DNA from: Minisyncoccota bacterium
GTDB taxonomy: Bacteria; Patescibacteriota; Minisyncoccia; Phycocordibacterales; DASSSU01
NCBI GenBank assembly: GCA_035708305.1
Contig: DASSSU010000037.1
Location: 1 to 52,379, forward strand
DNA: 52,379 bases
Direction: 5' to 3'
The number at the start of each line of letters is the position of its first letter. Positions within the stretch are counted from its first letter, which is position 1. This document shows, in pieces, positions 57 through 46,919 of the stretch. A program made the position numbers and the translations under genes. Under the pieces are notes generated by a model, which was given only the letters and a program-made list of their open reading frames with translations, was not told the origin of the DNA and did not search any database.

Positions 57-2072
57 ATGGCACGCAGCATCATTTTGGGAAACGGAAACATGCTCGTCGG
101 TTTGGACGAATGGGCAAATGTTCGCGATCTGTATTTTCCAATGGTGGGGCTGGAGAACCACGTTGGCGAGCACATGCGCCACCGGATCGGAGTATGGGCA
201 GATGGAAAGTTCTCTTGGCTTCACGATGGAACCTGGACGATCAAAACTCATTTGGAAGACGCCGCACTGGAAAGCAGCATTGAGGCGACTCATGCCGAAC
301 TTGGCGTTTCTCTCTTTTTCCATGACGTGGTTTACAATGAAAAAAATATTTTCATTCGCGCGGTAGAAGTAAACAACCTTGCAGACCAAAAGCGCAGCAT
401 CCGCGTTTTTTTTGCGCATGAGTTCGAGCTTTATTCTTCCAGTACCGCGCATACTGCGTACTACGATCCGATCCAAAAAGCGCTGATCCACTACAAAGTT
501 CGCCGCGTACTTCTGGCAAATGCGAGAATTGACGGACAGATGTGGAGCGAGTACACCACTGGGGTATTTGGGATTGAAGGAAAAGAAGGTTCGTTCCGGG
601 ATGCGGAAGACGGACAGCTTTCGGGGAACCCGATCGAGCACGGGCCGGCGGATTCAGTTTTGGGACTCTATGCTGACTATGCACCGGGGGAGCAGAAGAC
701 CATTCACTATTGGATTGTTGCAGCGAAGGACATCGAGCGCGCAATCGAGCTCAACAACCTCGTGCTGGAGAAAAAGCCAGAACACATGGTTCTCTCGACG
801 CGAAACTTTTGGAAATCCTGGGTAGAGAAGCGGACATTTCACTTTCCCAACTTGGACCCGAGTTGCGGACGGCTTTTTCAAAAATCCCTTCTGCTGATCC
901 GTGCTCACACCAACAACAACGGCGCAGTGATCGCTTCATCTGATTCCGGCATGCTCCAAAAAGGTAAGGACACGTATGCGTATGTCTGGCCGCGTGATGC
1001 TGCTTTCGTTGCTTTAGCCATGTCCGGATCTGGCTACCTGTCCATCACAAAAGAATTTTTCAGCTTCTGCAAAGAAACGATCAGTCCGATGGGCTACTTT
1101 ATGCACAAGTACAACCCAGATGGCTCGCTTGGGTCTTCATGGCACCCATGGGTTCGGAATGGCAAGTTTCAGCTTCCGATCCAGAAAGACGAAACCGCAC
1201 TCGTACTCTTTTCGTTTTGGAAGTTTTATCAGTTTTCCAAAGATCTGGAGCTGGTGGAACGCTTCTATGATTCTCTCATTTTTAAAACCGCGGAATTTCT
1301 TTCCGAGTACAAAGACGGATGCACCAACCTTCCGGCGCCATCATACGATCTTTGGGAAGAACGCTTCGGTATGCATACCTTCACTTCCGCGGCGATCTAC
1401 GCCGGACTTAAAGCCGCTGAAAATTTTGCGCTTCTTCTTGGGAAGGACGACGAACGTAAACGCTGGCACGACCGCGCGTGCGAAATCCGCGAGGCTATTT
1501 TGAAGCACTTGTACAACGAAAAAACTGGCACGTTTTATCGGAGCATCAATGTTTCATATGAAAAGAGCGATCTGCGTTTGGAACATCCGAAGATAGAGCG
1601 CGATGAAACGATCGACATTTCAAGCGCATACGGAATTTATCTTTTTGAGGTTTTAAATGTGAACGATCCGCGTCTAACTTCTGCAATGGAAAAAACCAAA
1701 GCCGCTCTGGAATGCAAAGAAAAAGGAACTGTCGGAGGCTTGGCACGCTACGAAGAAGATCAGTATCATCGTGCCAGTCCGTACGTTCCCGGCAATCCGT
1801 GGTTCATCACGACGCTCTGGTATGCGCAGTACACGATTGCTCGCGCGAAAAATGCGAAAGATTTGGAAGAAGCGGTGAAATGGCTCCATTGGGCGGCTGA
1901 TCATGCGGAGTCTTCGGGCGTTATGGCAGAACAGCTGCATCCGTACACCGGTGCGGCGATTTCTGCCACTCCTTTGACCTGGAGTCATGCGGAGTATGTC
2001 CGCACGGTGTTGGAGTATTTGAATAAGATGGAGGAGCTTGGTCTCTGCGCCGACTGCAATCCCAATAATTAA
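57..2072 (+). CDS. Glycoside hydrolase family 15 (glucoamylase/trehalase-like)
   Basis: 671 aa ORF with GH15 motifs YAYVWPRDAA, YDLWEE and C-terminal MAEQ..P.TG..ISATPLTWSHAEY. Confidence 0.9.
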   Translation: MARSIILGNGNMLVGLDEWANVRDLYFPMVGLENHVGEHMRHRIGVWADGKFSWLHDGTWTIKTHLEDAALESSIEATHAELGVSLFFHDVVYNEKNIFIRAVEVNNLADQKRSIRVFFAHEFELYSSSTAHTAYYDPIQKALIHYKVRRVLLANARIDGQMWSEYTTGVFGIEGKEGSFRDAEDGQLSGNPIEHGPADSVLGLYADYAPGEQKTIHYWIVAAKDIERAIELNNLVLEKKPEHMVLSTRNFWKSWVEKRTFHFPNLDPSCGRLFQKSLLLIRAHTNNNGAVIASSDSGMLQKGKDTYAYVWPRDAAFVALAMSGSGYLSITKEFFSFCKETISPMGYFMHKYNPDGSLGSSWHPWVRNGKFQLPIQKDETALVLFSFWKFYQFSKDLELVERFYDSLIFKTAEFLSEYKDGCTNLPAPSYDLWEERFGMHTFTSAAIYAGLKAAENFALLLGKDDERKRWHDRACEIREAILKHLYNEKTGTFYRSINVSYEKSDLRLEHPKIERDETIDISSAYGIYLFEVLNVNDPRLTSAMEKTKAALECKEKGTVGGLARYEEDQYHRASPYVPGNPWFITTLWYAQYTIARAKNAKDLEEAVKWLHWAADHAESSGVMAEQLHPYTGAAISATPLTWSHAEYVRTVLEYLNKMEELGLCADCNPNN

Positions 2073-2193
2073 TTCTTCCATTTCTGGTACATTTCATCGT
2101 CTTGAAAAAAATTCCTTGGTCACCGTACTAGTCGTACGGTTTCCGGCACGATTTTTCTCAAGACGCGAACCGCACTCAGAAATGAAAGAATTA
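2070..2193 (+). repeat. Family B nested hairpin, copy B1
   Basis: Outer IR taattcttccatttctg/cagaaatgaaagaatta starting at the GH15 stop; inner IR cgtcttgaaaaaaat/atttttctcaagacg; core ggtcaccgtac-tagtc-gtacggtttcc. Confidence 0.8.
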
Positions 2194-2326
2194 CTTTGCA
2201 ATACTCTGAAAGTGATTTTTCGTCTTCCAAAAATTTTATTTTTTTTTAGCCTTGTCCACTTCGGTTGACTTGTCTTTGTTGGTATACTAAAAAGAGCATT
2301 TATTCACCGATAATTTTTAAAGACTC

Positions 2327-3328
2327 ATGGCTGAATTTGATTTTGTATCTATTGGAGACATCACAACGGATGCGTTTATCCACATTGATCACGCGAGTGT
2401 GAATTACAACAAAGCGAAACGCGAAGAAGAGCTTTGTCTCACTAACGGCGCGAAAATTCCGTTTGAATTTGTGAAGGTGGTGCCGGCCGTAGGGAACAGC
2501 TCCAACGCCGCTGTTTCTGCTGCACGTTTGGGACTCAACACTGCTTTTGTTTCCAACTTAGGCGATGATGACCATGGGCATGAGGACTTGGAAATTTTGA
2601 AAGGCGAAAAGGTGGATACGCGCTTTATCAAAGTTCATCCGGATCTTTCGAGCAACTATCACTATGTGCTGTGGCACAAGGCAGAGCGCACGATTCTCAT
2701 CAAGCATGAGGCATACCCGTACGAAATGCCGGATGTGGGAAATCCGAAATGGATGTACTTCAGCTCAGTGGGGGAGGACTCCATACAGTTTCATCATGAT
2801 GTGGCGGCCTATGCCAAGTCCCATCCGGAGACGAAACTTGCCTTTCAGCCGGGCACGTTTCAGATTGAGCTTGGTGCGGAAAAACTCAAAGACCTGTACG
2901 AAGCTTCCGAAGTTTTCTTCTGCAATGTAGAGGAAGCGCGCTTGATTATTGGTGATGAAAAGCAGGAAGTTCCAAAGAAAGAACTCACGATCAAGATCCA
3001 CGAACTTGGTCCAAAAATCGTGGTAGTAACGGACGGAGCGGAGGGATTGTACGCGTACGAAGGAGACAATCAGGGTATTTGGTTTATTCCGCCGTATCCG
3101 GATCCAAAGCCGCCGTACGATCGTACCGGAGCGGGCGATGCCTGCGAGTCTACTATTACCGCTGCCTTGGCACTTGGATTGAGTATGAAAGAAGCAATCA
3201 TGTGGGGACCGATCAACTCCATGTCAGTCGTGCAGTATGTCGGTGCGCGCGAAGGACTCTTGACTCGCGAAAAACTCGAAGAGTATCTTGCAAACGCACC
3301 GGAAGACTACCAGCCGCGAAAAGTGTAA
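2327..3328 (+). CDS. PfkB/ribokinase-family carbohydrate kinase
   Basis: GNSSNAAV N-terminal signature and DRTGAGDA anion-hole motif. Confidence 0.9.
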   Translation: MAEFDFVSIGDITTDAFIHIDHASVNYNKAKREEELCLTNGAKIPFEFVKVVPAVGNSSNAAVSAARLGLNTAFVSNLGDDDHGHEDLEILKGEKVDTRFIKVHPDLSSNYHYVLWHKAERTILIKHEAYPYEMPDVGNPKWMYFSSVGEDSIQFHHDVAAYAKSHPETKLAFQPGTFQIELGAEKLKDLYEASEVFFCNVEEARLIIGDEKQEVPKKELTIKIHELGPKIVVVTDGAEGLYAYEGDNQGIWFIPPYPDPKPPYDRTGAGDACESTITAALALGLSMKEAIMWGPINSMSVVQYVGAREGLLTREKLEEYLANAPEDYQPRKV

Positions 3329-3349
3329 GTAAACTTATCGTTTTGGAAT

Positions 3350-3413
3350 GCACCATGAGAATGTTCTTTTCGAAGTTTGTGGGCTTCACGAGAAAAGAAT
3401 ATTCTCATGGTGC
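3350..3413 (+). repeat. Family A hairpin, copy A1
   Basis: gcaccatgagaat-gttcttttcgaagtttgtgggcttcacgagaaaagaat-attctcatggtgc. Confidence 0.85.
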
Positions 3414-3465
3414 CTTCTTAAGGTTTCTCCTTTCAAAGGAGAGTTTCGGCTAATTTTTATCTTTT

Positions 3466-4776
3466 ATGATTGACTTTCGCTTCAAAGACACTGCGCTTGT
3501 TTCCGAGGACGAGCTCGTGATGACTTCTCATCGGCTTTTTCCGTATACCGAGCGTCTGAAAATTCTCTCGGAAAACGGCGGGTACGGCGAGCCGGAAGCT
3601 TCGCTCAACCTGCTTTTCGACGGCGCACTTCTGCAGTCTGTTCGTGAGGCGAGTGCGAAACTCAGGGATCCAAGGTTAAAATACATTGTCCTGGTGGGAA
3701 TCGGTGGGTCCAATCTTGGTACGGAAGCGATTTATGACGCGCTTTTGGATCGGAAAAAAATTTGCACGCCCGGAAACCCTGGCATACTTTTCCTGGACAC
3801 GGTGGACAGTGTTCGGGCAAATGCTGTGTGCGAAACACTTCTCGAATGCGAGAGCGCAGAAGAATTTGTCTTGTTGGTCGTCAGCAAATCGGGAAAAACC
3901 ACTGAAACGGCGGCAAATGCAGCGTTCTTGTACAATACGCTTTCGGAACGGTTTAGCGACTTGAATGCACGTGTGGCGTGCATCACCGATGAAGGCTCGG
4001 CGCTCTGGAAGCTTGCGGAAGAGAAAAATTTTCTCACGCTTTCTATCCCCAAAAATGTAGGCGGGCGATACTCAGTGTTTTCTGCGGTGGGGCTTTTGCC
4101 GCTTTCACTTGCGGGAATAGACATTGAAAAAGTTCTCGCTGGTGCAAAGCAGATCCGAAAAGAATGCCTCTTTTCAAATGCGCACAACAACCCCGCGCTG
4201 CTCTCGGCCGTGGTGAAATACTGTCAGTTCAAGAAAGGTGCCCGAGTCCACAACCTTTTTCTTTTTGATTCCTCGCTTGCGGTTTTTGGAAGCTGGTGGC
4301 GGCAGCTCGTGGGGGAGAGTTTAGGGAAGGAGTTTGATTTAAATAGCAATCCGATAAACGACCGCATCCTTCCGATGGTCTCTCTCGGCTCTACGGATTT
4401 GCATTCCGTGGGGCAACTTTATTTGAGCGGAGAGAAAAGCATTTTTACCACGTTTGTTTCTCTCGAAAAAAAGAGAGAAGAAATTCCAACACTTTCGGAT
4501 TCGTCGTTCACACCACTTGTGCCGGAAATCCGCGGAAAGGATTTTTCCAATATCATGGAGGCGATTTTAAAAGGGGTGAAGGAGGCATACCGGAAGAGAA
4601 GTTTGCCTTTTGCGGAAATTTCTCTGCCGGAAATTTCGGAAGAAAACATCGGTGCACTTTTCCAAATGGAAATGCTCTCTACCATGTATCTCGCGTTTCT
4701 TATGAACGTCAACGCATTTGATCAGCCAAACGTAGAAGAATACAAAAAAATCACCCGGGAAATTTTGGAAAAATAA
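3466..4776 (+). CDS. pgi: Glucose-6-phosphate isomerase
   Basis: GIGGS, SKSG.T.ET, GGRYSV, GESLGK and FDQPNVE motifs. Confidence 0.92.
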   Translation: MIDFRFKDTALVSEDELVMTSHRLFPYTERLKILSENGGYGEPEASLNLLFDGALLQSVREASAKLRDPRLKYIVLVGIGGSNLGTEAIYDALLDRKKICTPGNPGILFLDTVDSVRANAVCETLLECESAEEFVLLVVSKSGKTTETAANAAFLYNTLSERFSDLNARVACITDEGSALWKLAEEKNFLTLSIPKNVGGRYSVFSAVGLLPLSLAGIDIEKVLAGAKQIRKECLFSNAHNNPALLSAVVKYCQFKKGARVHNLFLFDSSLAVFGSWWRQLVGESLGKEFDLNSNPINDRILPMVSLGSTDLHSVGQLYLSGEKSIFTTFVSLEKKREEIPTLSDSSFTPLVPEIRGKDFSNIMEAILKGVKEAYRKRSLPFAEISLPEISEENIGALFQMEMLSTMYLAFLMNVNAFDQPNVEEYKKITREILEK

Positions 4777-4809
4777 AAACTGCCCCGGATACTTACCGAG
4801 ACTGTTTTG

Positions 4810-4856
4810 TAAGAATCCGGAGAACAGCACCATGTTCTTTTCTCGCAAAGCCCACG
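4810..4856 (-). repeat. Family A half copy A2, adjacent to B2
   Basis: Minus strand gtgggctttgcgagaaaagaacatggtgctgttctcc matches the 3' arm of A8 (gtgggcttcacgagaaaagaacatgggctgttctcc). Confidence 0.7.
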
Positions 4857-4870
4857 AACGTATTGCAAAA

Positions 4871-5000
4871 CAAAACCTCCATTTTTGGATGAAGACCGAG
4901 GCGCAAGAGAAGAATCCGAAAGAGCCGTACTTACTGGTACGGTGACTGAGTGATTCTTCTCTTGCAACGAAGGTATTCGCCAAAAATGGAGGCTTTGATG
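4871..5000 (-). repeat. Family B nested hairpin, copy B2
   Basis: Outer IR cctccatttttgg/ccaaaaatggagg; inner IR gcaagagaagaatc/gattcttctcttgc; near-identical inverted copy of 46790-46919; starts right after the LOG stop. Confidence 0.9.
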
Positions 5001-6230: not shown

Positions 6231-6261
6231 CTTTTTGCCTGCTCTAGTATGATAGAGGGAT

Positions 6262-6333
6262 AAAGGAGATGGCAAAAACTTCTTTTCTCGTGAAGCCCAC
6301 AGACTTCGAAAAGAAGTTTTTGCCATCTCCTTT
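6262..6333 (-). repeat. Family A hairpin, copy A9, upstream of xseA
   Basis: Minus strand aaaggagatggcaaaaacttcttttc-gaagtctgtgggcttcacga-gaaaagaagtttttgccatctccttt. Confidence 0.85.
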
Positions 6334-9878: not shown

Positions 9879-11015
9879 ATGGCTATTCTCGAACAGGTAA
9901 AAGGCGCTCTTGCAGATGCGCTTCACCTTCAAAAAACTAACAGCGTACTCGGTCTCGATATCGGGAGTTCTTTTGTGAAAGTTGTACAGCTTCGCAAAGA
10001 CGGCGAAAAAGCGGTTTTGGAAACGTACGGGGAGCTTGCGCTCGGTCCGTATGCTGGTTTGGAAGTTGGTCGCGCTGCAAACCTAAAGCCAGAGCAGATC
10101 ATTCAAGCAGTTTTGGCGCTTTTCAGCGAAGCAAACATCACGACGAAAACAGGCTCAGTAGCAATCCCTCTCGGTTCCACACTTTTGTCGCTGATCGAGA
10201 TGCCAAAGATGAACGAAGCGGAACTGGCGAAAACAATTCCTCTTGAGGCGAGAAAATACATCCCGGTCTCTATTTCAGATGTGTCACTGGATTGGTGGAT
10301 CATTCCGGAAAGGAAAGGAGAAGAAGCAGAAGAGGAAGAAGATGAAACCGAGCCGAAAGAAAAGAAGGAGAAAAAAACCGAAGTGTTGATAGTCGCTATT
10401 CACAATGAAGTGCTCACGAAATATAATGACATCATCAACCGCGCAGAGCTTCAGAACAGCTCTTTGGAAATCGAAACATTCAGTGCGGTTCGTTCCACGC
10501 TTTCTCATGACATGTCTCCCTTGATGATGCTTGACCTGGGAGCGGCAACTACGAAACTTTCTTTGGTGGAGCAGGGGATCATCAAAAGTTCCCACATCCT
10601 CAACAAAGGTTCGCAGGACATCACCATCGCGCTTTCCCATTCGCTCAACATGTCCATGCCGAAGGCGGAGGAACTGAAGCGGAAGGTCGGGCTTCTGGGC
10701 GAGGGGGACGATGCAGCCGCAAGCAAGGTCATGGAAGCGGAAGTGGATTATATTTTGACAGAAGCCAACCGTGTTCTTTTAAATTACCAGACGAAGTATC
10801 GCCGTACGGTGACCAAGGTGGTGCTGATCGGCGGCGGAGTGCTTCTGAAGGGTTTCGAAGACGAGGCGAAGAAAAAGCTTTCGACGGAGGTGGTTTATGG
10901 AGATGCGTTTTCGAAAGTTCAGACGCCGCCATTTCTGGAGCCAGTCCTGAAGGAGGCGGGCCCGGAGTTTGCGGTGGCACTCGGCCTTGCCCTCCGTCGT
11001 CTCCAAGATCTTTAA
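9879..11015 (+). CDS. pilM: Type IV pilus assembly protein PilM
   Basis: LGLDIGSS.VKVVQL, LDLGAATT and LIGGG actin-like motifs; start set at ATG 9879. Confidence 0.9.
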   Translation: MAILEQVKGALADALHLQKTNSVLGLDIGSSFVKVVQLRKDGEKAVLETYGELALGPYAGLEVGRAANLKPEQIIQAVLALFSEANITTKTGSVAIPLGSTLLSLIEMPKMNEAELAKTIPLEARKYIPVSISDVSLDWWIIPERKGEEAEEEEDETEPKEKKEKKTEVLIVAIHNEVLTKYNDIINRAELQNSSLEIETFSAVRSTLSHDMSPLMMLDLGAATTKLSLVEQGIIKSSHILNKGSQDITIALSHSLNMSMPKAEELKRKVGLLGEGDDAAASKVMEAEVDYILTEANRVLLNYQTKYRRTVTKVVLIGGGVLLKGFEDEAKKKLSTEVVYGDAFSKVQTPPFLEPVLKEAGPEFAVALGLALRRLQDL

Positions 11016-11137
11016 AATTTCCAAAATTGGCGATCTGCTGTGTTAAGCTCTCCATTTTGACCCTCACTGTACGAAAGCAGTACGACTCGGGATCAAAATG
11101 GAGAGCTTACCTTGCATGTTATCCAATTGTGAAAGTT
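11016..11137 (+). repeat. Family B nested hairpin, copy B3
   Basis: Directly after the pilM TAA; inner IR taagctctccattttga/tcaaaatggagagctta; core ctcactgtac-gaaagca-gtacgactc; loops cgatctgctgtgtt and ccttgcatgttat. Confidence 0.85.
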
Positions 11138-11231
11138 AGATAGTGGTTTTAAAAGTTTGTTAGAAAACAAACTTCGTCCAAATCTGAAACCTTTTATCGT
11201 GGCAAGACCAAAAATTATTTAATTACTCAAC

Positions 11232-13155: not shown

Positions 13156-15051
13156 ATGAGTTTTCTTGAAGAACTGGTACAGCGTGGTGTTCTCAATCGG
13201 GAAGAAGTTCCTATTGTTTTGAAGCTGGCTCATGACACGGGAACGGACATTGATTCGGCACTCCTCTCCCGCGGAGTAGACGAGCGGACCCTCATGAGGA
13301 TCAAGGGGGAGTATCTTCGCATGCCAGTCCGAGTACTCGGAGGGAACCCGGTTCCATACCGAGTGCTTCAGTATATTCCAGAAAATTCCGCTCGGCACTA
13401 TCACTTTGTTCCGATCGGCATCAAGGACAGCGTGCTTGAGATTGGAATTACTGATCCGAACAACATTGAAGCGATGGATGCGCTTCAGTTTATCTCTACA
13501 AAGATAAAAATGCCGTTTCGGGTTTTTCTCATTTCTGAAAAAGATTTTGCGGCAGTTTTGGCGGGCTATCAAGGTTTGCCGGGAGAAATGTCCACGGCTT
13601 TGGCACAGCTCGCGGGAGAGTTTCAGCCACTTCAGGATTCCACAGTAGAAGACATTCCAGGGGAAAATAAAGAAAAAGTCGATGGCGCTTCCGTATCCCA
13701 CGAAAATAATAATCCAAATGATGACGACGATGGTGTTGAAACCGAAGAAGATGACGGGAGCGGAACGAGTGCTCATGCAGAAGGAGTGAAAAAGGACCTT
13801 CAAAAAACTCTTGCGGATGCAGCAAAACCAGAAGCGGCACAGAAAGACAAAGACGGAAAGTCGCATATTGTTGAGGACGCGCCGGTTTCAAAAATGGTGG
13901 CGGTGATTTTGCGGCATGCAACCGAAGGGAACGCTTCGGACATTCACATTGAGCACACGGGAGACAAAATCCGAGTGCGCTTCCGTATTGACGGCGAGCT
14001 GCACACGAGTATTTTGCTTCCAACCAATGTGCACGCAGCGATGGTTTCACGCATCAAGATTCTTTCCAACCTGAAGCTTGACGAAAAACGTAAGCCGCAA
14101 GACGGACGCTTTTCCGCCAAAATAGACGGAAGAAGAATCGACTTTCGCGTTTCCACGTATCCGGCATATTATGGTGAAAAGGTGGTGATGCGTATTCTTG
14201 ACTCGGAAAAGGGAATCAAGAGTATTGATCAGTTGGATTTCCAGAAAGGTCAGCTGGAAAAGATCAAAGCGGCTATCAAGCGCCCGTATGGAATGATCCT
14301 GATTACCGGGCCGACCGGCTCAGGAAAATCCACAACCCTGTATTCTATGCTGAACGAACTGGACCGTCAGAAAGATAACGTGGTGAGCCTGGAAGATCCG
14401 GTGGAATACACGATCGAGGGGGTGAACCAGTCCAACGTGCGGCCGGAAATCGGGTACACGTTTGCGACCGGACTTCGTTCGATCCTGCGACAAGACCCCG
14501 ACGTGATCATGGTTGGTGAGATCCGCGACAAAGAAACTGCGCAGCTTGCGATCCAGGCGGCCTTGACCGGACACTTGGTTTTCTCCACGCTTCACACCAA
14601 CACGGCGGCTGGTGCGATTCCGCGCTTGATCGATATGGGAGTTGATCCATACTTGATCGCACCAACGCTTATCTTGGCAATTGGACAGCGCCTCACTCGT
14701 GCGCTTTGCGAAGGAGGAGGGAAGCCAATTCCGGTAGACGAAGCGATGCAGGTGATGTTTGACAAGCAATTTGAAGATCTTCCGAAAAAATTCCGAGACG
14801 AGATCAAAATTCCAGATCATGTCTACGAAGCGGTTCCTACTGCCGAATGTCCGGGAGGGACTCGGGGACGTATGGCCGTGTTTGAAATCCTGGATGTCAA
14901 TGCGGACGTTCGTCACGCGATTTTAAACAAACCTGTGGAAAGTGAAGTATTTCAAGTTGCTCGGAACAATGGTATGCTTACGATGAAGGAGGATGCTCTT
15001 TTGAAAGCGTTTGACGGGAAGATACCTTATATCGAAGTCAATAAGCTCTGA
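13156..15051 (+). CDS. pilB: PilB/GspE-family extension ATPase
   Basis: ASDIHIE, PQDGR, GPTGSGKSTT, EDPVEY, LRQDPDVIMVGEIRD and TGHLVFSTLHTN motifs; N-terminal T2SSE_N-like domain. Confidence 0.95.
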   Translation: MSFLEELVQRGVLNREEVPIVLKLAHDTGTDIDSALLSRGVDERTLMRIKGEYLRMPVRVLGGNPVPYRVLQYIPENSARHYHFVPIGIKDSVLEIGITDPNNIEAMDALQFISTKIKMPFRVFLISEKDFAAVLAGYQGLPGEMSTALAQLAGEFQPLQDSTVEDIPGENKEKVDGASVSHENNNPNDDDDGVETEEDDGSGTSAHAEGVKKDLQKTLADAAKPEAAQKDKDGKSHIVEDAPVSKMVAVILRHATEGNASDIHIEHTGDKIRVRFRIDGELHTSILLPTNVHAAMVSRIKILSNLKLDEKRKPQDGRFSAKIDGRRIDFRVSTYPAYYGEKVVMRILDSEKGIKSIDQLDFQKGQLEKIKAAIKRPYGMILITGPTGSGKSTTLYSMLNELDRQKDNVVSLEDPVEYTIEGVNQSNVRPEIGYTFATGLRSILRQDPDVIMVGEIRDKETAQLAIQAALTGHLVFSTLHTNTAAGAIPRLIDMGVDPYLIAPTLILAIGQRLTRALCEGGGKPIPVDEAMQVMFDKQFEDLPKKFRDEIKIPDHVYEAVPTAECPGGTRGRMAVFEILDVNADVRHAILNKPVESEVFQVARNNGMLTMKEDALLKAFDGKIPYIEVNKL

Positions 15052-15170
15052 GACTTCCATTCTTGGCACTCTTCTGCGTTGAGCAATTTTATTTTGGCAT
15101 TCACCGTACGAAGAGTACGGCTCATACCAAAATAAAATGCTCGCCTTGAATAGCGCTCAAGAATGAAACC
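15052..15170 (+). repeat. Family B nested hairpin, copy B6
   Basis: Directly after the pilB TGA; inner IR gagcaattttattttgg/ccaaaataaaatgctc; core tcaccgtac-gaaga-gtacggctc; outer cattcttg/caagaatg. Confidence 0.85.
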
Positions 15171-15278
15171 CCTAGGAAATCTAAAACTTTCAGCGAACGC
15201 TTGTATGTCAAGAATGAAACCATTTGAACAGTGGTTTGAATTCAAAAAGGTGGAAGAAAAATTTTTAAATACAAAAAC

Positions 15279-15733: not shown

Positions 15734-16798
15734 ATGGTGGATTACAAAAAAGAACTGGAAGATCTCATGCTTTACGTGATTCGCGAGGGCGGGTCGGATC
15801 TGCATTTGTCGGTAGGAAAGACTCCTCACATCCGCGTTTCGGGAAGCTTGGTGCCGCTTATGCGAAAAACGCCGCTTACTCATGAAGACACCATGGAATT
15901 TGTTTCGCTGCTTCTGGATGATGAGAAGAAGCAACAGTTTCTTCGCGAACAGGAGATAGACTTTTCTTACTCATTTTCGGATGATGCGCGTTTTCGCTGC
16001 AATGCCTTCTTTCAATCCGGGGATGTGGGGATTGCCATGCGTCTTATTCCGGAGCACATCCGTAACGTGACAGAGCTGAACCTTCCGCCGATTTTGGAGA
16101 CGTTTTCCCAAAAGAAGCAAGGATTTTTCTTGGTGGTAGGGCCGATCGGGCAGGGGAAATCCACCACGCTTGCCGCACTGATCAACATGATCAACGTGAC
16201 GCGCTCGGTGCACATTCTCACGATTGAAGATCCGATCGAGTACATTTTTAAAGAAGACAAAGCCATCATTGATCAGCGTGAAGTTCACACCGACACGGAC
16301 AGCTTCCCGGCGGCACTTCGTTCGATGTTCCGTCAGGATGTGGACGTGCTGATGATCGGAGAAATGCGCAGCCAAGAAACGATTTCATCTGCTGTGACGG
16401 CAGCGGAAACCGGACACTTGGTTTTCTCCACGCTTCACACCAACACCGCGGCGCAAACTGTTGACCGTATTGTGGACAGCTTCCCCTCCGATCAGCAGAA
16501 CCAGATCCGCATGCAGTTAGCTTCTGGTCTGATCGGAGTTTTCTCGCAGCGCCTCATTCCGCGGGTGGGTGGCGGGATGGTCCCGGCGGGGGAGCTTATG
16601 GTAAATACCAGTGCGGTTTCCAACCTGATCCGCGAGGGACGGAGTCACGAGATCCCATCGGTGATCGAAACTGGGTCTGAGTTTGGAATGATCGATATGA
16701 ACCGTTCGCTGCTGGATTTGGTGCAGTCGGGTGAGATTTCGTATGAGGATGCGATACTGAACTCCCAAAACCCTCGTGGTTTGGAGAGATTACTGTAA
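15734..16798 (+). CDS. pilT: Type IV pilus retraction ATPase PilT
   Basis: SDLHL, GPIGQGKSTT, EDPIE, TGHLVFSTLHT and AVSNLIRE (AIRNLIRE-like) motifs. Confidence 0.95.
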   Translation: MVDYKKELEDLMLYVIREGGSDLHLSVGKTPHIRVSGSLVPLMRKTPLTHEDTMEFVSLLLDDEKKQQFLREQEIDFSYSFSDDARFRCNAFFQSGDVGIAMRLIPEHIRNVTELNLPPILETFSQKKQGFFLVVGPIGQGKSTTLAALINMINVTRSVHILTIEDPIEYIFKEDKAIIDQREVHTDTDSFPAALRSMFRQDVDVLMIGEMRSQETISSAVTAAETGHLVFSTLHTNTAAQTVDRIVDSFPSDQQNQIRMQLASGLIGVFSQRLIPRVGGGMVPAGELMVNTSAVSNLIREGRSHEIPSVIETGSEFGMIDMNRSLLDLVQSGEISYEDAILNSQNPRGLERLL

Positions 16799-16915
16799 GA
16801 CTTCCAAATTGAGCGATCTCCTGTGTCAAAGCCTGTATTTTCCTGTTCATCTGCCTATGGCAGACTCACAGCAAAATGCAGACTTTTCCTTGAATCTCAC
16901 CTCAATTTGAAAGCC
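16799..16915 (+). repeat. Family B nested hairpin, copy B7 (variant core)
   Basis: Directly after the pilT TAA; outer cttccaaattgag/ctcaatttgaaag; loops cgatctcctgtgtc and tccttgaatctcac; core tca-tctgc-ctatg-gcaga-ctc. Confidence 0.8.
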
Positions 16916-16999
16916 TCTCACGTATTTCCGAGTTTAAAGATTCTGAGAAATGAAACCCTTGCTCTCGGTGGTTCCCTGAAAAAATCCTTGTCACCTAAA

Positions 17000-17069
17000 C
17001 CAGAGATCGTTTCGTGTTCTTTTCGAAGTTTGTGGGCTTCACGAGAAAAGAATATGAAACGATCTCTGG
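17000..17069 (+). repeat. Family A hairpin, copy A4
   Basis: ccagagatcgtttc-gtgttcttttcgaagtttgtgggcttcacgagaaaagaatat-gaaacgatctctgg. Confidence 0.85.
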
Positions 17070-18336: not shown

Positions 18337-18459
18337 TTAAAACTTTCAAAATTGGCGATCTGCTGCGTTAAAAGAAAAAGTGCTTGGTCACCGTACTATC
18401 CGTACGGCTCCCGGCGCACTTTTTCTTTTGCCTTGCATCTCATCCAATTTTGAAAGTTT
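18337..18459 (+). repeat. Family B nested hairpin, copy B4
   Basis: Outer IR aactttcaaaattgg/ccaattttgaaagtt; inner aaaagaaaaagtgc/gcactttttctttt; core ggtcaccgtac-tatcc-gtacggctcc; starts after the pilC TAA. Confidence 0.9.
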
Positions 18460-18554
18460 TATTTTTCAAAACATTGGAAGTGGTTTTTTAGTGAAAATGC
18501 ACTCAGGAATGAGCGTTTTTTCTTTGTAATATTCTGAAGGTGTTTACTCGAGAG

Positions 18555-18643
18555 CGGAAGCTCCTGATGTTTCTTTTCAAGACACTGAGACTTGGGCAAA
18601 CGCCCCGGAGTGGTGTCTGGAAAAGAAACATCAGGAGCTTCCG
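18555..18643. repeat. Long inverted repeat (24-bp perfect arms) upstream of the major pilin
   Basis: cggaagctcctgatgtttcttttc (18555-18578) and gaaaagaaacatcaggagcttccg (18620-18643). Confidence 0.9.
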
Positions 18644-18656: not shown

Positions 18657-18697
18657 GAATCTTTTCGAAGTTTGTAGGCTTCACGAGAAAGGAATAT
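18657..18697 (+). repeat. Family A hairpin, copy A5
   Basis: gaatcttttcgaagtttgtaggcttcacgagaaaggaatat. Confidence 0.75.
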
Positions 18698-18801: not shown

Positions 18802-18810
18802 TTATCCACA
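18802..18810 (+). promoter_or_regulatory. Perfect DnaA box upstream of the major pilin
   Basis: TTATCCACA. Confidence 0.55.
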
Positions 18811-29652: not shown

Positions 29653-30516
29653 ATGAAACATCTCACCATTCTCGGGACGATTACACTTTTTTTTCTTATG
29701 CCGTTTTTTGCGGCGCATGCTGATGGTCAAACATGTTTCGCGGTAAAAGACAGCACGGGGTATCACAAAGTCGGGTGTGCGGATACTCTGGCAGCGTGTC
29801 AGTCCGTGTACCAAGTGACGAGCAATGCGGTGATTCCATGTCAGCCGGAAGCGGTTGTTGATTCTTATGTCAGTGAGAAGAACACCGGCAGTCCTGTTGA
29901 CCCCGGCCCATATTGTTACGTGGGAATTGATTCGAGTGGAAAAGCCAACCCTCTCGCCTGTACAGACAAAGCGGACTGCGAAACTGTCTATGCAAGTGCG
30001 TCAAATGTCATTGCCGCTTGTGAACCACAGTCAAAAGCCATTTCGGATGCGAATAGTTACAATGCTGCCAATACAAATACTGTTACCGTCGGAAATGGAT
30101 CTACCGCCAGTAATGGGGAGAACCCGAGTTCTCAACAAGCCGTAGGTCCGGGTGGAAGCATTCCATATGCCAATGGCAGCTGTGTTCCGCTCGTGCAGTG
30201 TATGGCAAATTGCGGCTTTCCGCAGATCTTGGCAATGATCAAATGTATCGTGACATTTCTCCTCTTCTACATCGCCACTCCGTTTGCTGCTGTCTTCTTT
30301 GTCTATGCTGGGTTTCTCTACATGACTTCCGCCGGCGATCCAGGCAAGGCAAGGTTGGCAAAAGATATTTTTGTCTGGATTGTCTTCGGCTTCATCATCG
30401 CGCTTGTGGCGTGGCTCCTCATCAACGCACTCCTTTTGGGCTTGGGTGTCAAAGACAAGTTTAATTTCCTGAGCGAAACGCTGGCGCTCTTTAAATTCTG
30501 GCCGTATCATTTTTAG
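29653..30516 (+). CDS. CPR-type VirB2/TrbC-like pilin with a Cys-rich repeat N-terminal extension
   Basis: C-terminal A..F.VYAGFLYMTSAGDP.K...AK.I..W...G..I.L.AWLL two-TM pattern; signal peptide; two 4-Cys repeats. Confidence 0.75.
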   Translation: MKHLTILGTITLFFLMPFFAAHADGQTCFAVKDSTGYHKVGCADTLAACQSVYQVTSNAVIPCQPEAVVDSYVSEKNTGSPVDPGPYCYVGIDSSGKANPLACTDKADCETVYASASNVIAACEPQSKAISDANSYNAANTNTVTVGNGSTASNGENPSSQQAVGPGGSIPYANGSCVPLVQCMANCGFPQILAMIKCIVTFLLFYIATPFAAVFFVYAGFLYMTSAGDPGKARLAKDIFVWIVFGFIIALVAWLLINALLLGLGVKDKFNFLSETLALFKFWPYHF

Positions 30517-35466: not shown

Positions 35467-35510
35467 TTCTGTTCTTTTCGAAGTTTGTAGACTTCACGAG
35501 AAGAGAAGAT
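35467..35510 (+). repeat. Family A hairpin, copy A6
   Basis: ttctgttcttttcgaagtttgtagacttcacgagaagagaa, between lemA and htpX. Confidence 0.8.
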
Positions 35511-38892: not shown

Positions 38893-38916
38893 TTGTGGTA
38901 TCATGAAGGTATCTTT

Positions 38917-39855
38917 ATGACACAAGAAGAAAAAAAATTTGGTGAGGTCATGATTTATCGCGATGGTGATAAACCGCGACTTGAAGTCAAACTTGAACAA
39001 GGAACGGTGTGGCTGACGCAATCACAGATGGTGGAGCTTTTTGAAAGTAGCAAGGCAAACGTGAGCGAGCATATCAAGAATATTTACGAAGAAGGCGAAC
39101 TCAGGGAAAACACAGTTGTTCGGAAATTCCGAACAACTGCCCAAGATGGAAAGACCTACAATGTTGCTCACTATAATCTGGATATGATCATATCGCTGGG
39201 GTATCGAATAAAATCTCATACTGCGACTCAGTTTCGTATGTGGGCGACGGGCGTGCTGCGTGAGTACACTCTCCAGGGTGTGGCAGTGAATCAAAAACGA
39301 CTCGACCAGCTGGGAAAGTACCTCGATATTGTTTCGCGTTCGGAAATTGCGGAAGTCTCGGGTGTGGGTGAGATTGTGAAAGAATACATCGGTGCGCTTC
39401 ATCTGCTTGAGGAATACGACGACAACAGGCTGAGCGAGCCGGAAGGGAGGAAAGAAAGTTGGAAACTAACCTACGAGGAAGCGCGGACTTTTCTTGAGAA
39501 AATAAAAAAGCAAGAAGACTTTGGCGAGAATTTTGCAAATGAACGAAGTGAGCATTTCGGAGGTGTCGTCGCCGGTTTGTATCAAACATTTGGTGGGAAG
39601 GAACTCTACAAAAGTGTGGAGGAAAAAGCGGCGAATCTTCTGTATCAGGTGGTGAAAGACCATCCATTTGTGGATGGCAACAAACGTTCCGCAGCGGCAC
39701 TCTTTATTTTTTTCCTCTCCAAAAACGGCATCCGCTCGACAATCAACAGTAACGCACTTGCGGCAACTATCCTCATGGTCGCGCTTTCCGATCCATCTGA
39801 AAAAGATCAGATGATTCTTTTGGTGCGCAATTTTCTTGATAGCGGGAGAAAGTAG
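38917..39855 (+). CDS. RhuM-like N-terminal domain fused to a Fic/Doc domain
   Basis: TVWLTQ.QM.ELF, YNLDMIISLGYR..S..ATQFR.WAT and Fic motif HPFVDGNKR. Confidence 0.9.
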   Translation: MTQEEKKFGEVMIYRDGDKPRLEVKLEQGTVWLTQSQMVELFESSKANVSEHIKNIYEEGELRENTVVRKFRTTAQDGKTYNVAHYNLDMIISLGYRIKSHTATQFRMWATGVLREYTLQGVAVNQKRLDQLGKYLDIVSRSEIAEVSGVGEIVKEYIGALHLLEEYDDNRLSEPEGRKESWKLTYEEARTFLEKIKKQEDFGENFANERSEHFGGVVAGLYQTFGGKELYKSVEEKAANLLYQVVKDHPFVDGNKRSAAALFIFFLSKNGIRSTINSNALAATILMVALSDPSEKDQMILLVRNFLDSGRK

Positions 39856-41284: not shown

Positions 41285-41378
41285 GAGGTTTATGAGGTTT
41301 ATAATAAAAAAGAGGAGACGATTTACGCCTCCTCGAAATTTGAAAGATCTTCTTCTCAGTTATTTTAGGTGCAGTATT

Positions 41379-41915
41379 TTACTGTGGATCACTACAACCC
41401 GGTCCGCAACCGCAGGAATCTCCTGGGCTACAATCACCCAAAACAATATACCCAATTTTTTCAATGCCTGGTCCGAGTACCGGTTTACCTTTCTCGTTTA
41501 AATAATACCAGTTCTCACCCAGGACACCCTCTCCAAACAGGTTAGTAGCAACTTGAAGGGTGTATTTGGGTGCGTTTGGATCAGAAGGCTGATCACTTGT
41601 CGCCGGTTTGTGGTAAATAAAATGAGCAAAGTGTTTTATGCAGAAATCTTCATATTCTTTCATGAAGAGTCCAAATTCATGCCATCCAATGTCTATCGTG
41701 TCGGGAGGAGTCCACTGTCCAGGAATTGTCCCACACATGTACAGAAAACGTTTGGTATCCTGAAATACGCTACAGGCTTGTTTGTAGGACATGCCATGTT
41801 TCTTTTGAAGACGCTCGACAACGTGCCGGTTATCGTAGTTCATAACCTTCTCAAGCAGTTCAGGTGATTTACTAGCGTGAACGTTAGACGTGCGCTTTAG
41901 TATTGAATTTGTCAT
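41379..41915 (-). CDS. Glycine-rich-domain-containing-protein-like fold with a Cys-rich C-terminal tail
   Basis: KRFL..C....TPP..ID.GWH.F......Y..FC...F..FI.H.P pattern; tail DCSPGDSCGCGPGCSDPQ; GAGGT Shine-Dalgarno. Confidence 0.65.
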   Translation of the reverse strand: MTNSILKRTSNVHASKSPELLEKVMNYDNRHVVERLQKKHGMSYKQACSVFQDTKRFLYMCGTIPGQWTPPDTIDIGWHEFGLFMKEYEDFCIKHFAHFIYHKPATSDQPSDPNAPKYTLQVATNLFGEGVLGENWYYLNEKGKPVLGPGIEKIGYIVLGDCSPGDSCGCGPGCSDPQ

Positions 41916-42100
41916 CTTTACTTACCTCTGTGTTGTCCAAGAAAAGAACCGGAATGCTCAGAACCATGAAAAAGTACAACATTCCATTGCGAATATAACA
42001 TGCTTAAATATTTTACGCAACAAGCATTGACAAATATTAAATTCCAATTAATGTAGAGTTGGTATTCAAAATTTTTTGTTCTTTGAAAAGGAGTTGGGAA

Positions 42101-43303: not shown

Positions 43304-43323
43304 TAAGTCGGAGAATTAGGTTC

Positions 43324-43351
43324 AAGAGCCGGAGAAAGTCCGGCTCTTTTT
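43324..43351 (+). terminator. Intrinsic terminator
   Basis: aagagccgga-gaaag-tccggctctt followed by T run. Confidence 0.8.
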
Positions 43352-43470
43352 AATACCGCTTTCAATAAAGAGGATATTTTTTAGAGGTTCTTAATTATTG
43401 AAGAATAAAAAATTTAAAAGATTCTTGAATTCTAAAACATTTGAATAAATACATATCGTTTCGTTTAGGG

Positions 43471-44730
43471 CTACACAAAAATTTCCGGAATGGGGAAGGA
43501 AAGGGCGAGGGTTTTGACTTCTTCGCGAAGCGTGGATTTTTTTGCTTCGTTATCTTTGTTTTTCAAAATATCCAAAATGATTTCTGCGACGCGTGCGCAG
43601 TCTTTTTCTTTAAAACCGCGGGTGGTAATCGCCGGAGTGCCGAGGCGGATGCCGGAAGGGTCAAGCGGTTTGCGCGGGTCGTCGGCGATGACGTTCATGT
43701 TGAGCGTGATGCCGATTTCATCTAGAAGAGTCTGTGCTTCTTTTCCAGAAACTCCAAACGAACCGGAAACATCTGCCAGGATGAGATGGTTGTCCGTACC
43801 GCCGGTGATCATTTTGAGACCGCCGCGCGCGAAAACTTCTGCCATGGCTTTTGTGTTTTTCAGAATCTGCGCTGCGTACTCCTGGAATGCAGGCGTGAGC
43901 GCTTCACCAAAACACACGGCTTTTGCGGCGATGGTGTTCATGTGCGGACCGCCCTGGAGACCGGGAAAAACCACCTTGTCGATTTTTTTCGCAAGGTCTT
44001 CGTTTTCACGGACGAGGATCATGCCGCCGCGTGGTCCGCGAAGAGTCTTGTGTGTGGTGGTCGTCATGACATCAAACCCGAAATCAAACGGATTTTTCAC
44101 GGCTTTTCCGGCGATGAGTCCGGCAATGTGCGCCACGTCGATCATCGAAACGGCGCCGATTTCACGGGCGATCTCCACAAATTTTGCGTAGTCAAGTTCG
44201 CGCGGGTAGGAAGAGAATCCGGCGAGGATTATTTTTGGTTTTTCACGGAGTGCGATTTCCCGCATTTCGTTGTAGTCGATTTCGCCGGTCGTGGGATCTT
44301 TCATTTTGTAGTGCACGAAGCGGAAGAGCTTTGAGAGCACGGTGACCGGAGAGCCGTGCGTGAGGTGTCCGCCGTGGGAAAGGTCCATCCCGAGAATCGT
44401 GTCGCCCGGTTCAAGAAGCGCGAAATATGCCGCCATGTTTGCCGGCGCGCCCGAGTGCGGCTGGACGTTGGTAAACTTCGCCTCGAAAAGTTTTTTCGCC
44501 CGGTCCCGTGCGAGATCTTCCACTGTATCGGTGAAATCTTGCCCGCCGTAGTAGCGCTTGCCAGGGTAGCCTTCGGAATATTTGTTGGTAAAAACCGATG
44601 CATTGGCTTCACGAACAGCGCGCGAAACGTAGTTTTCCGACGGAATGAGCTCGAGTCCTTCGGTTTGGCGCTTTTCTTCGCCTTGGATCGCGTCCCAAAC
44701 TTCCCGGTCTTGGTTTTTGAGGTATGACAT
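43471..44730 (-). CDS. glyA: Serine hydroxymethyltransferase
   Basis: LIPSEN, GYPGKRYYGG, HGGHLTHG, TTTHKTLRGPRGG and SGIRLGTPA motifs; start set at ATG 44730. Confidence 0.98.
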   Translation of the reverse strand: MSYLKNQDREVWDAIQGEEKRQTEGLELIPSENYVSRAVREANASVFTNKYSEGYPGKRYYGGQDFTDTVEDLARDRAKKLFEAKFTNVQPHSGAPANMAAYFALLEPGDTILGMDLSHGGHLTHGSPVTVLSKLFRFVHYKMKDPTTGEIDYNEMREIALREKPKIILAGFSSYPRELDYAKFVEIAREIGAVSMIDVAHIAGLIAGKAVKNPFDFGFDVMTTTTHKTLRGPRGGMILVRENEDLAKKIDKVVFPGLQGGPHMNTIAAKAVCFGEALTPAFQEYAAQILKNTKAMAEVFARGGLKMITGGTDNHLILADVSGSFGVSGKEAQTLLDEIGITLNMNVIADDPRKPLDPSGIRLGTPAITTRGFKEKDCARVAEIILDILKNKDNEAKKSTLREEVKTLALSFPIPEIFV

Positions 44731-44789
44731 ATTTCTACATGATAGCAAATCGAAACAGAAAAGAAAAAGGGAATGACTTTGGAAATTCC

Positions 44790-44835
44790 ACCATATATTT
44801 TTTGAAGTTTGTGGGCTTCATGAAAAGAGCATATG
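44790..44835 (+). repeat. Family A degenerate copy A7
   Basis: catatattttttgaagtttgtgggcttcatgaaaagagcatatg. Confidence 0.65.
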
Positions 44836-44926
44836 CTTGTGGTTTTCAGACCGATAAACTTTCCGAAAAATAAAAAATGGGGAAAATGAAATTTCAAAGA
44901 TGTTTTCTTCTTGTATAATGAAATGA

Positions 44927-46789
44927 ATGAAAACGAGTTTTCTTGCCGCCTTGGGATGGTTTCTCCTTGCGGTACTCGGCGCGGGAATGTGGTATCTGCT
45001 TCGCTTTGGAGGCGAGGCGGTGTATTCGCCGTTTTTGCCGGAGGTTGCTTTTCTCGCTTTTTTTCTCGCGGGATTTTTTGTTTTTCTGATTCTGCGCAAA
45101 ACACTCAAAACGCGGGCGAAAATTCTTGCGTACGATCAGGAACTCAGGCACAAAAATGAAATGTACGATCTCATTTCTGGCGGACTCGACGACGGGATTT
45201 GGGATTGGGATTTCAAGACTGGAAAAGTTTTTTTTTCGGATGAGTGGAAGAAGCTTTTGGAGTTCAAAGATCGAGGGAGGCTTGGGGCGCGCTTTGAAAA
45301 TTCTCCCGAAGGATTGCAGTTGAAAGCGCAAAGTGCGGACGCGGAAAACAGCACGGTACCCGGAAAAGTAGAGACGATCGCGGATTTCGAAGATACGGCG
45401 GACTGGTGGGCGGGGCGGATTCACCCGGACGACATTGACCAAGTGAAGCAGCAGATGGATCTGCATTTCGCGGGACAGAAGCCGTTTTATGAAGCGGAGT
45501 ACCGGTTTTTGAACGGAAAGCAGGAGTATGTGTGGATCATCGATCGCGGCCGGGCGGTGAAAGACGCGAGAGGAAAGCTCAGTCACATGGCCGGGATCAC
45601 GAGCAGTATTCAGGATTTGAAGAATGTGGAGAAAGTTTTGAAAGGACGTACCAGCGAACTCGAAGCTGCAAAAGCGCACATCGAAAGCGAAAAAGCGCAA
45701 ACAGAAACCGTGCTGGAGTCGATCGGTGAAGGCGTGATCGCAGTGGACAAAAAAGGCCTGGTCACGGTGGCGAACCCCGCGGGGGCAAACATGCTCGGGC
45801 TTTCGAAAGAAGACATGATCGGCATGACCTTTGCCAACGTGATTCCGAAAGAAGAAGATCGCAAAGAGCAGCCGACACAAAAAGAAGATCGCCTTGTGTA
45901 CCAAACCCTCGCGACGGGCAAGAAATATTCCGCGACCTCCTACTACTATCGTTCGGATGATGCAAAATTTCCGGCGGCGGTCACTTCTGCGCCGATTGTG
46001 CTGGACGGAGCGCTTGCGGGGGCGATTGTGGTTTTTCGTGACACCACGCGTGAAATGGAGATCGACAAACAAAAAACGGAATTTGTTTCGCTTGCGTCTC
46101 ACCAACTTCGCACACCGCTTTCCGCCGTGCGCTGGTACTCGGAAATGGTGCTGGGGGAAAAGATCGGTCCCCTAAACGACAAGCAGCGGAAGTATGTGCA
46201 GGAAGTCTACGACAGCAACTTGCGGATGATCGAGCTGGTGAACGCACTCTTGAACGTATCGCGCATTGAGCTGGGAACCTTTGCCGTGGAGCCATCGGAA
46301 GTAAACCTGGGTGAAATGTTTGAAAGCGTGGTGGACGAGCTCATGCCAGCCATGCGGGCAAAAAACCTTCACTTTGAAAAGCATTATGAAAACGCACCGA
46401 AAGCCTTTTTTGTGGATCCGAACCTCATGCGGATCGTTTTCCAAAACTTGCTTTCCAACTCGGTGAAGTACACGCCGGAGGGTGGAAGTGTGGGTATTTC
46501 GGTGGAAGAAGTTGGGGCATATTTGCGGGTGAAAGTCTACGACACCGGCTACGGCATCCCGAAAGCCGATCAGCCAAAAATGTTTACCAAGCTTTTCCGT
46601 GCGAGCAACGTGACGACAAAAGACACGGAAGGAACGGGTCTCGGTTTGTACATCATCAAGTCCGTGGTAGAAAAAACCGGCGGGCGGATTTGGTTTGAAT
46701 CGGAGGAAAATAAAGGAACAACGTTTTTTGTGGAGTTGCCGATGAAGGGGATGAGTAAGATTGAAGGCACAAAAGGCCTCGAACCTTGA
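44927..46789 (+). CDS. Membrane PAS/PAC sensor histidine kinase
   Basis: Two N-terminal TMs; PAS (GIWDWD, RIHPDD) and second PAS; H-box SHQLRTPL; NLLSNSVKY, DTGYGI and GTGLGL. Confidence 0.95.
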   Translation: MKTSFLAALGWFLLAVLGAGMWYLLRFGGEAVYSPFLPEVAFLAFFLAGFFVFLILRKTLKTRAKILAYDQELRHKNEMYDLISGGLDDGIWDWDFKTGKVFFSDEWKKLLEFKDRGRLGARFENSPEGLQLKAQSADAENSTVPGKVETIADFEDTADWWAGRIHPDDIDQVKQQMDLHFAGQKPFYEAEYRFLNGKQEYVWIIDRGRAVKDARGKLSHMAGITSSIQDLKNVEKVLKGRTSELEAAKAHIESEKAQTETVLESIGEGVIAVDKKGLVTVANPAGANMLGLSKEDMIGMTFANVIPKEEDRKEQPTQKEDRLVYQTLATGKKYSATSYYYRSDDAKFPAAVTSAPIVLDGALAGAIVVFRDTTREMEIDKQKTEFVSLASHQLRTPLSAVRWYSEMVLGEKIGPLNDKQRKYVQEVYDSNLRMIELVNALLNVSRIELGTFAVEPSEVNLGEMFESVVDELMPAMRAKNLHFEKHYENAPKAFFVDPNLMRIVFQNLLSNSVKYTPEGGSVGISVEEVGAYLRVKVYDTGYGIPKADQPKMFTKLFRASNVTTKDTEGTGLGLYIIKSVVEKTGGRIWFESEENKGTTFFVELPMKGMSKIEGTKGLEP

Positions 46790-46919
46790 TATCAAAACCT
46801 CCATTTTTGGCGAATACCTTTGTTGCAAAAGAAGAATCACTCAGTCACCGTAACCGGAAGTACGGCTCCCTCGGATTCTTCTTTTGCGCCTCGGTCTTCA
46901 TCCAAAAATGGAGGTTTTG
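46790..46919 (+). repeat. Family B nested hairpin, copy B5
   Basis: Directly after the kinase TGA; outer caaaacctccatttttgg/ccaaaaatggaggttttg; inner gcaaaagaagaatc/gattcttcttttgc; core gtcaccgta..gtacggctcc. Confidence 0.9.

Follow-up and report, generated by a model that had tools for sequence, protein, structure and literature searches.

Family B: nested hairpins at gene stop codons in a Patescibacteria contig and across bacterial phyla

Why should ordinary genes of a small bacterial genome each be followed, at the stop codon, by a hairpin of more than 120 nucleotides? The question is raised by a 52,379-nt stretch of a Minisyncoccota bacterium (GenBank assembly GCA_035708305.1, contig DASSSU010000037.1, positions 1 to 52,379; hereafter the window), in which a preliminary description, made from the letters and open reading frames (ORFs) alone, had reported seven related hairpins, family B, and had read them either as a structured RNA or as a repeat resembling repetitive extragenic palindromes (REPs). 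We examined the structure, placement and distribution of these elements, and we favour, with moderate confidence, the reading that family B is a selfish, hairpin-mobilised repeat, similar to REPs and to MITEs (miniature transposable elements with inverted repeats), that rides in the 3' untranslated regions (3' UTRs) of the genes it follows.

Seven nested hairpins with covarying stems

The whole window was scanned, with filters off, using a covariance model (R1) built from an alignment of the seven copies (A2). R1 returned exactly seven matches, scoring 105–119 bits (E 1e-23 to 1e-26), on the places and strands that the preliminary description had given, and the best unrelated score was the 27 bits of a tRNA-Ser gene. 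The copies are as follows.

B1, 2070-2193, plus strand: after a GH15 glycosidase gene, whose stop codon (2070-2072) forms the first bases of the element; core hairpin 2120-2142; 105.9 bits
B2, 4871-4997, minus strand: after a LOG/TIGR00730 gene (minus strand), stop codon 5003-5001; core 4922-4945; 119 bits
B3, 11013-11140, plus strand: after pilM, stop codon 11013-11015; core 11064-11088 (TCACTGTAC..GTACGACTC); 110.5 bits
B4, 15049-15174, plus strand: after pilB, stop codon TGA 15049-15051; core 15101-15123; 118.9 bits
B5, 16796-16918, plus strand: after pilT, stop codon 16796-16798; swapped yet paired core TCA-TCTGCC..GGCAGA-CTC at 16847-16867; 105.4 bits
B6, 18338-18461, plus strand: after pilC, stop codon 18334-18336; core 18388-18410; 117.3 bits
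B7, 46793-46919, plus strand: after a PAS histidine kinase gene, stop codon 46787-46789; core 46845-46868; 114 bits

Each copy spans 123–128 nt, with 44 modelled pairs in nested helices, and is predicted to fold as one long nested hairpin of -40 to -63 kcal/mol, with z-scores against dinucleotide shuffles of about -7 to -10 (B6 -9.6; B4 -7.2). The layout is the one first described: an outer stem, a left loop (CGA-n8-GTT), an inner stem, the core, the returning inner stem, a right loop (GCCT/CCTT..CAT) and the returning outer stem. The exact core, TCACCGTAC-n4-8-GTACGGCTC, occurs three times in the window, against 0.00 occurrences expected from shuffles. One copy does carry a core stem exchanged for another that still pairs, as the preliminary description had it, although this copy is B5 (16796-16918) and not the last one.

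The copies differ greatly in their relatedness. B2 and B7 are 93% identical and are recent copies, with a compensated change from G-C to A-T in the inner stem of B7, whereas the remaining pairs share 51–67% identity. B3 and B6 have near-identical outer arms and unrelated inner stems. The arms of the inner stems were sought elsewhere in the window without a match, and the idea that the variable stems were copied from other sites in the window was therefore rejected. Inner-stem subfamilies are shared in many genomes, as in the three copies of L033.

The seven window copies alone show changes on both sides at 28 of the 44 pairs, and a 112-row model alignment extends this to 43 of 44, so the claim stands that this is a true family, whose arms covary and whose unpaired motifs stay constant. 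In the larger alignment 86.7% of cells are paired, compared with 54% when partners are shuffled and 32–46% when partners are slid, and the 17 modelled pairs of the outer stem reach 88.6%; since these rows were fitted to the model, the figures lean towards structure, but the margin is nonetheless large. Folding with flanks was too noisy to place the base of the hairpin. The consensus of 105 non-redundant copies retains the apex TCACCGTAC..GTACGGCTC and C-YTYGT-TG facing CG-CCTY-G, together with a weaker TTCCA/TGAAAG motif, while the stems, including the outermost 8 bp, are nearly informationless. The covariation is proof that the hairpin is of importance. It shows neither selection on an RNA nor an RNA role for the hairpin, one of the options of the preliminary description, because any hairpin obliged to fold as single-stranded DNA would give an equal signal.

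Placement at stop codons, spread and gain between relatives

All seven window copies lie 0–3 nt after the stop codon of a real gene and are oriented in the sense of that gene, in agreement with the original observation. In B1, B3, B4 and B5 the aligned element opens with the stop codon itself, and a gap of 1 nt in B6 and of 3 nt in B2 and B7 separates the two. The host genes are ordinary (GH15, LOG, PilM, PilB, PilT, PilC and the PAS histidine kinase), and B2 is opposite in orientation to its neighbouring copies. The non-random relation to stop codons extends beyond the window: an ORF of at least 100 codons ends within -12 to +16 nt of the 5' end of the element in 65 of 114 copies (mode -4 to 0), and 58 copies have such a neighbour in sense only, compared with 4 in antisense only (p=2.6e-13). 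The rest of the 114 mostly follow short genes, lie at contig ends or follow another copy in tandem doublets. Copies also occur between co-transcribed cistrons, namely pilB-pilT-pilC in the window and ssb-rpsR elsewhere (L042). REPs are known to occur within 20 bp of the 3' ends of ORFs, and in many cases a REP terminus supplies the stop codon (PMC3733652); the anchoring of family B at stop codons is therefore REP behaviour.

A core-pattern scan of 185,579 species genomes yielded at least 119 stretches, and the number of chance matches estimated for this pattern in the whole collection is about 90. Among the matches listed, nearly every one folds as a nested hairpin with the loops of family B, and R1 applied to the 119 fetched loci gave 118 matches at E<1e-3, including extra copies without the exact core. 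The majority of the matches listed belong to several classes of Patescibacteria (Saccharibacteria, Kaiserbacteria, Paceibacteria, Uhrbacteria and Zambryskibacteria); also among them are cultured Betaproteobacteria (Polaromonas JS666, Xylophilus, Janthinobacterium, Massilia and Paraherbaspirillum), Acidoferrum of the Acidobacteriota, Rokubacteria, and Polyangiaceae and Byssovorax of the Myxococcota. In two annotated plasmid records, from Ralstonia wenshanensis and from a Comamonadaceae isolate, the element begins at the end of an annotated coding sequence. The G+C content of the copies (0.36–0.71) tracks that of the host, and the apex stays constant. Carriage by phages was considered and rejected: among 2.9 million viral contigs there was a single core match, put down to chance.

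Family B is absent from Rfam and from the literature searched. Against Rfam 15, the window gave only the tRNA-Ser at gathering score, the copies gave nothing or weak microRNA-precursor noise at E<=5, and the elements in 18 loci from other phyla had no match, so that the check proposed at the outset returned no family. No account of the element turned up when the literature was searched by sequence and by topic.

Comparison with relatives provides evidence of gain and loss. A syntenic relative (L121), with a LOG protein 70% identical and the order GH15-PfkB-PGI-LOG...XseA...PilM as in the window, has spacers of 10–70 nt after GH15, LOG and PilM and is empty where the window holds B1, B2 and B3; a second relative (L122) is likewise empty. 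PfkB, PGI, LOG and PilM end at the identical residue in L121 and the window, and the C-terminus of GH15 has diverged. Conversely, L121 holds its own copy after xseB, where the window site is empty. The empty site after pilM in L121 (2690-2735, minus strand) reads TAA-GATTTCAATGACCGAGAAAGATTTAAC and resembles the ends of the B3 outer arms (TAAAATTTCCAA...GTGAAAGTTAGATAG), a likeness that may mark the relic of a copy since deleted or may be due to chance.

After pilC, a copy is present in three genomes, two of which were located via the element itself, and zero copies were found at 80 PilC loci of other Patescibacteria (53–63% identity, 450 kb). Conservation of position after pilC was accordingly not upheld, and the PilC C-termini of carriers match those of 39 non-carriers. 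In Janthinobacterium, element-free orthologues end in ..KRKTIG* and carriers in ..KRLGGKH*: an insert of about 155 nt lies 12 nt ahead of the native stop codon, and the frame now ends at a TGA within the 5' arm. In Ralstonia wenshanensis the element directly follows the native TAG of a response-regulator gene, and the same site in the R. solanacearum complex (L211-L213, about 1826-1890) is occupied by a tract of some 10 hexamer units, (GCTGTA)n, contiguous with the stop codon. Duplication of TA or another target, and inverted target duplication, were considered and are unsupported by both of these filled and empty pairs.

Tandem doublets, and composites of a linker with a second hairpin family (family A, below), resemble the mosaics of bacterial interspersed mosaic elements (BIMEs). 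Abundance is patchy, each of two relatives has gains that the other lacks, and paralogues of recent origin occur along with tandem or mosaic layouts; taken together, this is the pattern of a mobile repeat, and the filled and empty sites and patchy distribution fit the non-autonomous, REP-like option of the preliminary description.

The better-folding strand, and what the elements probably are

In 104 of 105 copies the more stable fold is that of the strand antisense to the gene (mean -57 vs -44 kcal/mol), and transition mismatches can be read as G-U pairs 400 times on the antisense strand, compared with 184 times on the sense strand. The excess has three sources: (i) conserved positions, notably an A facing C at the base of the core, which lengthens the antisense stem and leaves tandem G-A pairs; (ii) a C-A mismatch in TTCCA/TGAAAG; and (iii) the outer stem at large (99 vs 35). 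The variable inner stem is unbiased (87 vs 74). Such a bias argues against a purely sense-RNA function and, as mild evidence, weaker than the other results, suggests that it is the bottom strand that has to fold, in the form of single-stranded DNA. In the antisense core, GAGCCGUAC..GUACGGUGA resembles the base of group II intron domain V; we regard this as coincidence, with the upper helix, bulge and GNRA loop missing and no Rfam intron match.

Family B shares features with several described elements. Like REPs and BIMEs, it consists of multi-copy hairpins in transcribed intergenic DNA that adjoin ORF 3' ends and often provide the stop codon. Both occur singly, paired or in mosaics and vary in abundance by lineage, and mobilisation of REPs is believed to proceed through single-stranded hairpins (PMC3733652). 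The GTAG tag of REPs is found twice on the bottom strand of betaproteobacterial family B copies (CTAC on the top strand), whereas the window copies lack a GTAG/CGTC tag and have CGATCT../..CATCT at the corresponding places. REPs measure 20–40 bp, compared with 125 nt and three nested helices in family B, in which the apex and internal loops, rather than an end, are constant, stems are unrelated within one genome, the same apex recurs across phyla and no REP-associated tyrosine transposase (RAYT) was linked to the element in the window or the fetched loci. REPINs, non-autonomous replicative units made of a long hairpin of about 100 nt with compensatory changes between the arms, are similar in outline, but the strict form of this comparison fails, since the motifs of the two arms (YTYGT vs CCTY, TCA vs CTC) are not inverted copies of one REP, and the apex and loop region, not the ends, is the most conserved. 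REPIN-RAYT systems have been described from Gammaproteobacteria. MITEs such as ERIC/IRU, Correia/NEMIS, RUP and SMAG are likewise imperfect palindromes of 100–150 bp, co-transcribed and amplified in bursts within lineages; orientation-dependent effects are plausible for both, and the outer stem of family B corresponds to the terminal inverted repeats of MITEs. Unlike MITEs, family B shows no target duplication in the two filled and empty pairs, has unrelated stems within a genome and crosses phyla. We therefore class family B with REPs and MITEs, as a variant that belongs to none of the families described.

Under the mobile-repeat reading, new copies would be placed at a gene stop codon or within a few bases of it on either side, in one orientation. 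The constant parts would be the likely recognition surface for a trans-acting protein: the CCGTAC/GTACGG stem of 6 bp, flanked by TCA/CTC, the internal loop YTYGT/CCTY and the outer motif TTCCA/TGAAAG. Such a protein would recognise the element in a folded, single-stranded form, and the strand in question would most likely be the DNA complementary to the gene. Stems would need only to pair and could drift or be exchanged, adopting the base composition of the host. Once inserted, the element would be co-transcribed in the 3' UTR or intercistronic spacer of the upstream gene, and may incidentally affect mRNA ends. Both mobility via a single-stranded hairpin and the choice of strand are what we infer from the patterns above.

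Several observations weigh against this reading. No target-site duplication was found in the Janthinobacterium or Ralstonia alignments, and the window itself contains no transposase, as the preliminary description had said; no integrase was found in it either. When 1.39 Mb of fetched loci were searched by tblastn with Escherichia coli RayT, a single Y1 transposase gene came to light, flanked by a different REP:

L114, 35-727, minus strand: Y1_Tnp (IS200-like/RAYT-like) gene, with repeats at 2-18, 717-733 and 1485-1501

Its flanks are inverted copies of a 17-nt palindrome, CAGAAGGTGCCCTTCTG, unrelated to family B, and these loci gave no link between family B and a RAYT, the transposase having its own REP. 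Gene and palindromes form a small REPtron, in a genome where one family B copy also scores highly. When 2297 ORFs around the elements were clustered all against all, no recurrent neighbour gene was revealed. The excess of wobble pairs lies largely at a few conserved mismatch positions and may reflect recognition features rather than pairing, and one conserved T-G pair favours the sense strand. The window organism itself provided no insertion polymorphism, its nearest relatives standing at about 70% protein identity. Lastly, a constant apex across phyla with stems that follow host G+C (0.36–0.71) could equally mean long purifying selection for a host function.

The alternative that survives best, which we nevertheless judge unlikely, is a cis-acting structured RNA in the sense transcript, that is, a 3'-UTR or intercistronic module bound or cut via its constant loops by a conserved protein or RNase, which would set mRNA 3' ends, stability or the relative levels of cistrons, or would alternatively be coupled to the ribosome at termination, which would open up some 10 bp at the start of the outer stem. 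The sense orientation and registration with the stop codon agree with such a module, as do its location within operons that need read-through (pilB-pilT-pilC; ssb-rpsR) and, for B2, upstream of the gene's own terminator, and likewise the strong folds, the constant unpaired motifs and the conserved T-G wobble on the sense strand. However, it is the antisense strand that pairs better in nearly every copy, and the constant core, a sequence-specific stem with a variable loop, would be unusual for RNA recognition. The element is also missing from syntenic relatives and from the 80 related type IV pilus loci, the latter an absence not expected of a housekeeping 3'-UTR processing signal and one that weakens that earlier suggestion; in Janthinobacterium it was gained within a coding end, altering the protein C-terminus; and no Rfam family matches it.

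A doubtful further proposal takes two forms. Family B could be the recognition site of a single-strand-specific enzyme or conserved host factor, common to Patescibacteria, Betaproteobacteria, Acidobacteriota, Rokubacteria and Myxococcota, that would place solo hairpins precisely at stop codons in a fixed orientation; such a targeting rule, together with this hairpin architecture, would lie outside the REP-RAYT, IS200/IS605 and integron systems. Or else it could be a host-beneficial translation-termination module kept across phyla.

That the copies are transcription terminators or attenuators, a family of long hairpins at which RNA polymerase would halt or pause once past a gene, is very improbable. 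They are positioned after stop codons, T-rich runs follow B1, B2, B6 and B7, and repeated hairpins of terminator type have precedents in mycobacterial TRIT and in paired neisserial uptake sequences; but no consistent U-tract follows the hairpin across copies, copies lie between co-transcribed essential cistrons, and a terminator scan does not call them, yet calls canonical hairpin-plus-T terminators nearby. One of these follows B2, where an intrinsic-terminator-like hairpin of the LOG gene lies at 4802-4782 on the minus strand. Slightly less credible still is an antisense or guide-bearing hairpin RNA, in which the variable inner stem (14–19 bp) between constant loops would serve as a processed duplex, similar to a microRNA precursor, or in which the antisense transcript would itself be the active product. 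The more stable antisense fold, its purine-rich closed loops and the unrelated inner stems of B3 and B6 despite near-identical outer arms would fit, whereas the inner-stem arms match nothing else in the window, no promoter for an antisense transcript was identified, and shared inner-stem subfamilies, as in the three L033 copies, point to descent rather than to acquired guides.

The least probable account is an attC-like, structure-specific site, integron-like or a scattered solo-site derivative, whose bottom strand is recombined by a tyrosine recombinase: the elements do resemble attC in size (~120 bp), in being imperfect hairpins just after an ORF whose complementary strand folds better, in conserving structure above sequence, in occurring in taxa known for chromosomal integrons and in having AAC..GTT at the hairpin base in about 40% of copies, but that pair is not conserved and neither are R''/R' (RYYYAAC, GTTRRRY), the base flanks are A/T-rich and not YYY/RRR, the apex is constant where that of attC varies, B2 points the opposite way to its neighbours, the genes preceding the copies are core genes in conserved synteny and not cassettes, there are no arrays, relatives gain single elements with gene content unchanged, and no integrase lies in the window.

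Neighbouring repeats and consequences for host genomes

Alongside family B, the window contains a second set of hairpins, family A, and a conserved linker of roughly TTTGYAAWAYTCTGRARGTG, at the following positions.

3346-3417, 6262-6333 (opposite orientation), 17000-17069 and 46953-47018: family A hairpins
18659-18694 and 35472-35507: family A, apex only
4835-4873: family A, partial
2194-2225, 4860-4870 (minus strand), 18520-18550 and 46920-46950: conserved linker

Family A has a variable stem of 14–17 bp and a constant apex, GTTCTTTTC-GAAGTTTGTGGGCTTCACGA-GAAAAGAAC, and usually lies 50–120 nt upstream of the next gene start, often just downstream of family B; in ~1.4 Mb of fetched loci its apex is confined to contigs belonging to the same organism (L123). 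The linker follows B1, B2 (first part only), B6 and B7 and precedes family A hairpins, and linker and hairpins form BIME-like mosaics in spacers of 200–340 nt, compared with 10–70 nt in L121. Between B6 and a family A apex, a separate hairpin at 18555-18643 with 31-bp arms that are 97% complementary (CGGAAGCTCCTGATGTTTCTTTTCAAGACAC / ...) is the longest inverted repeat in the window.

A DnaA-box-like 9-mer, TTATCCACA or its variant TTGTCCACA, is present at 18802, between pilC and a pilin gene, with further sites at 2376, 9797, 20338, 48014 and 51570. Of 39 metagenomic Patescibacteria loci (L130-L203), about half likewise have it within the 40 nt that follow pilC, which suggests a conserved regulatory site. 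Among the housekeeping genes of the window are also a gene for a RhuM/Fic-domain protein (38893-39855) and one with a type IV secretion pilin domain (29653-30516).

For annotation and for the reading of expression, family B matters in that it can rewrite protein C-termini, as in Janthinobacterium, and sits inside operons; with the element, spacers grow from about 10–70 nt to 200–340 nt, and the covariance model could be used to mask or annotate the family. For the tiny, streamlined genomes of Patescibacteria, seven copies after seven ordinary genes in 52 kb represent a sizeable and unexplained investment. An apex that is the same in every letter in Patescibacteria and in cultured Betaproteobacteria, with all its surroundings changed, points to one conserved interacting protein, which the cultured carriers Janthinobacterium, Ralstonia, Polaromonas and Xylophilus make experimentally reachable.

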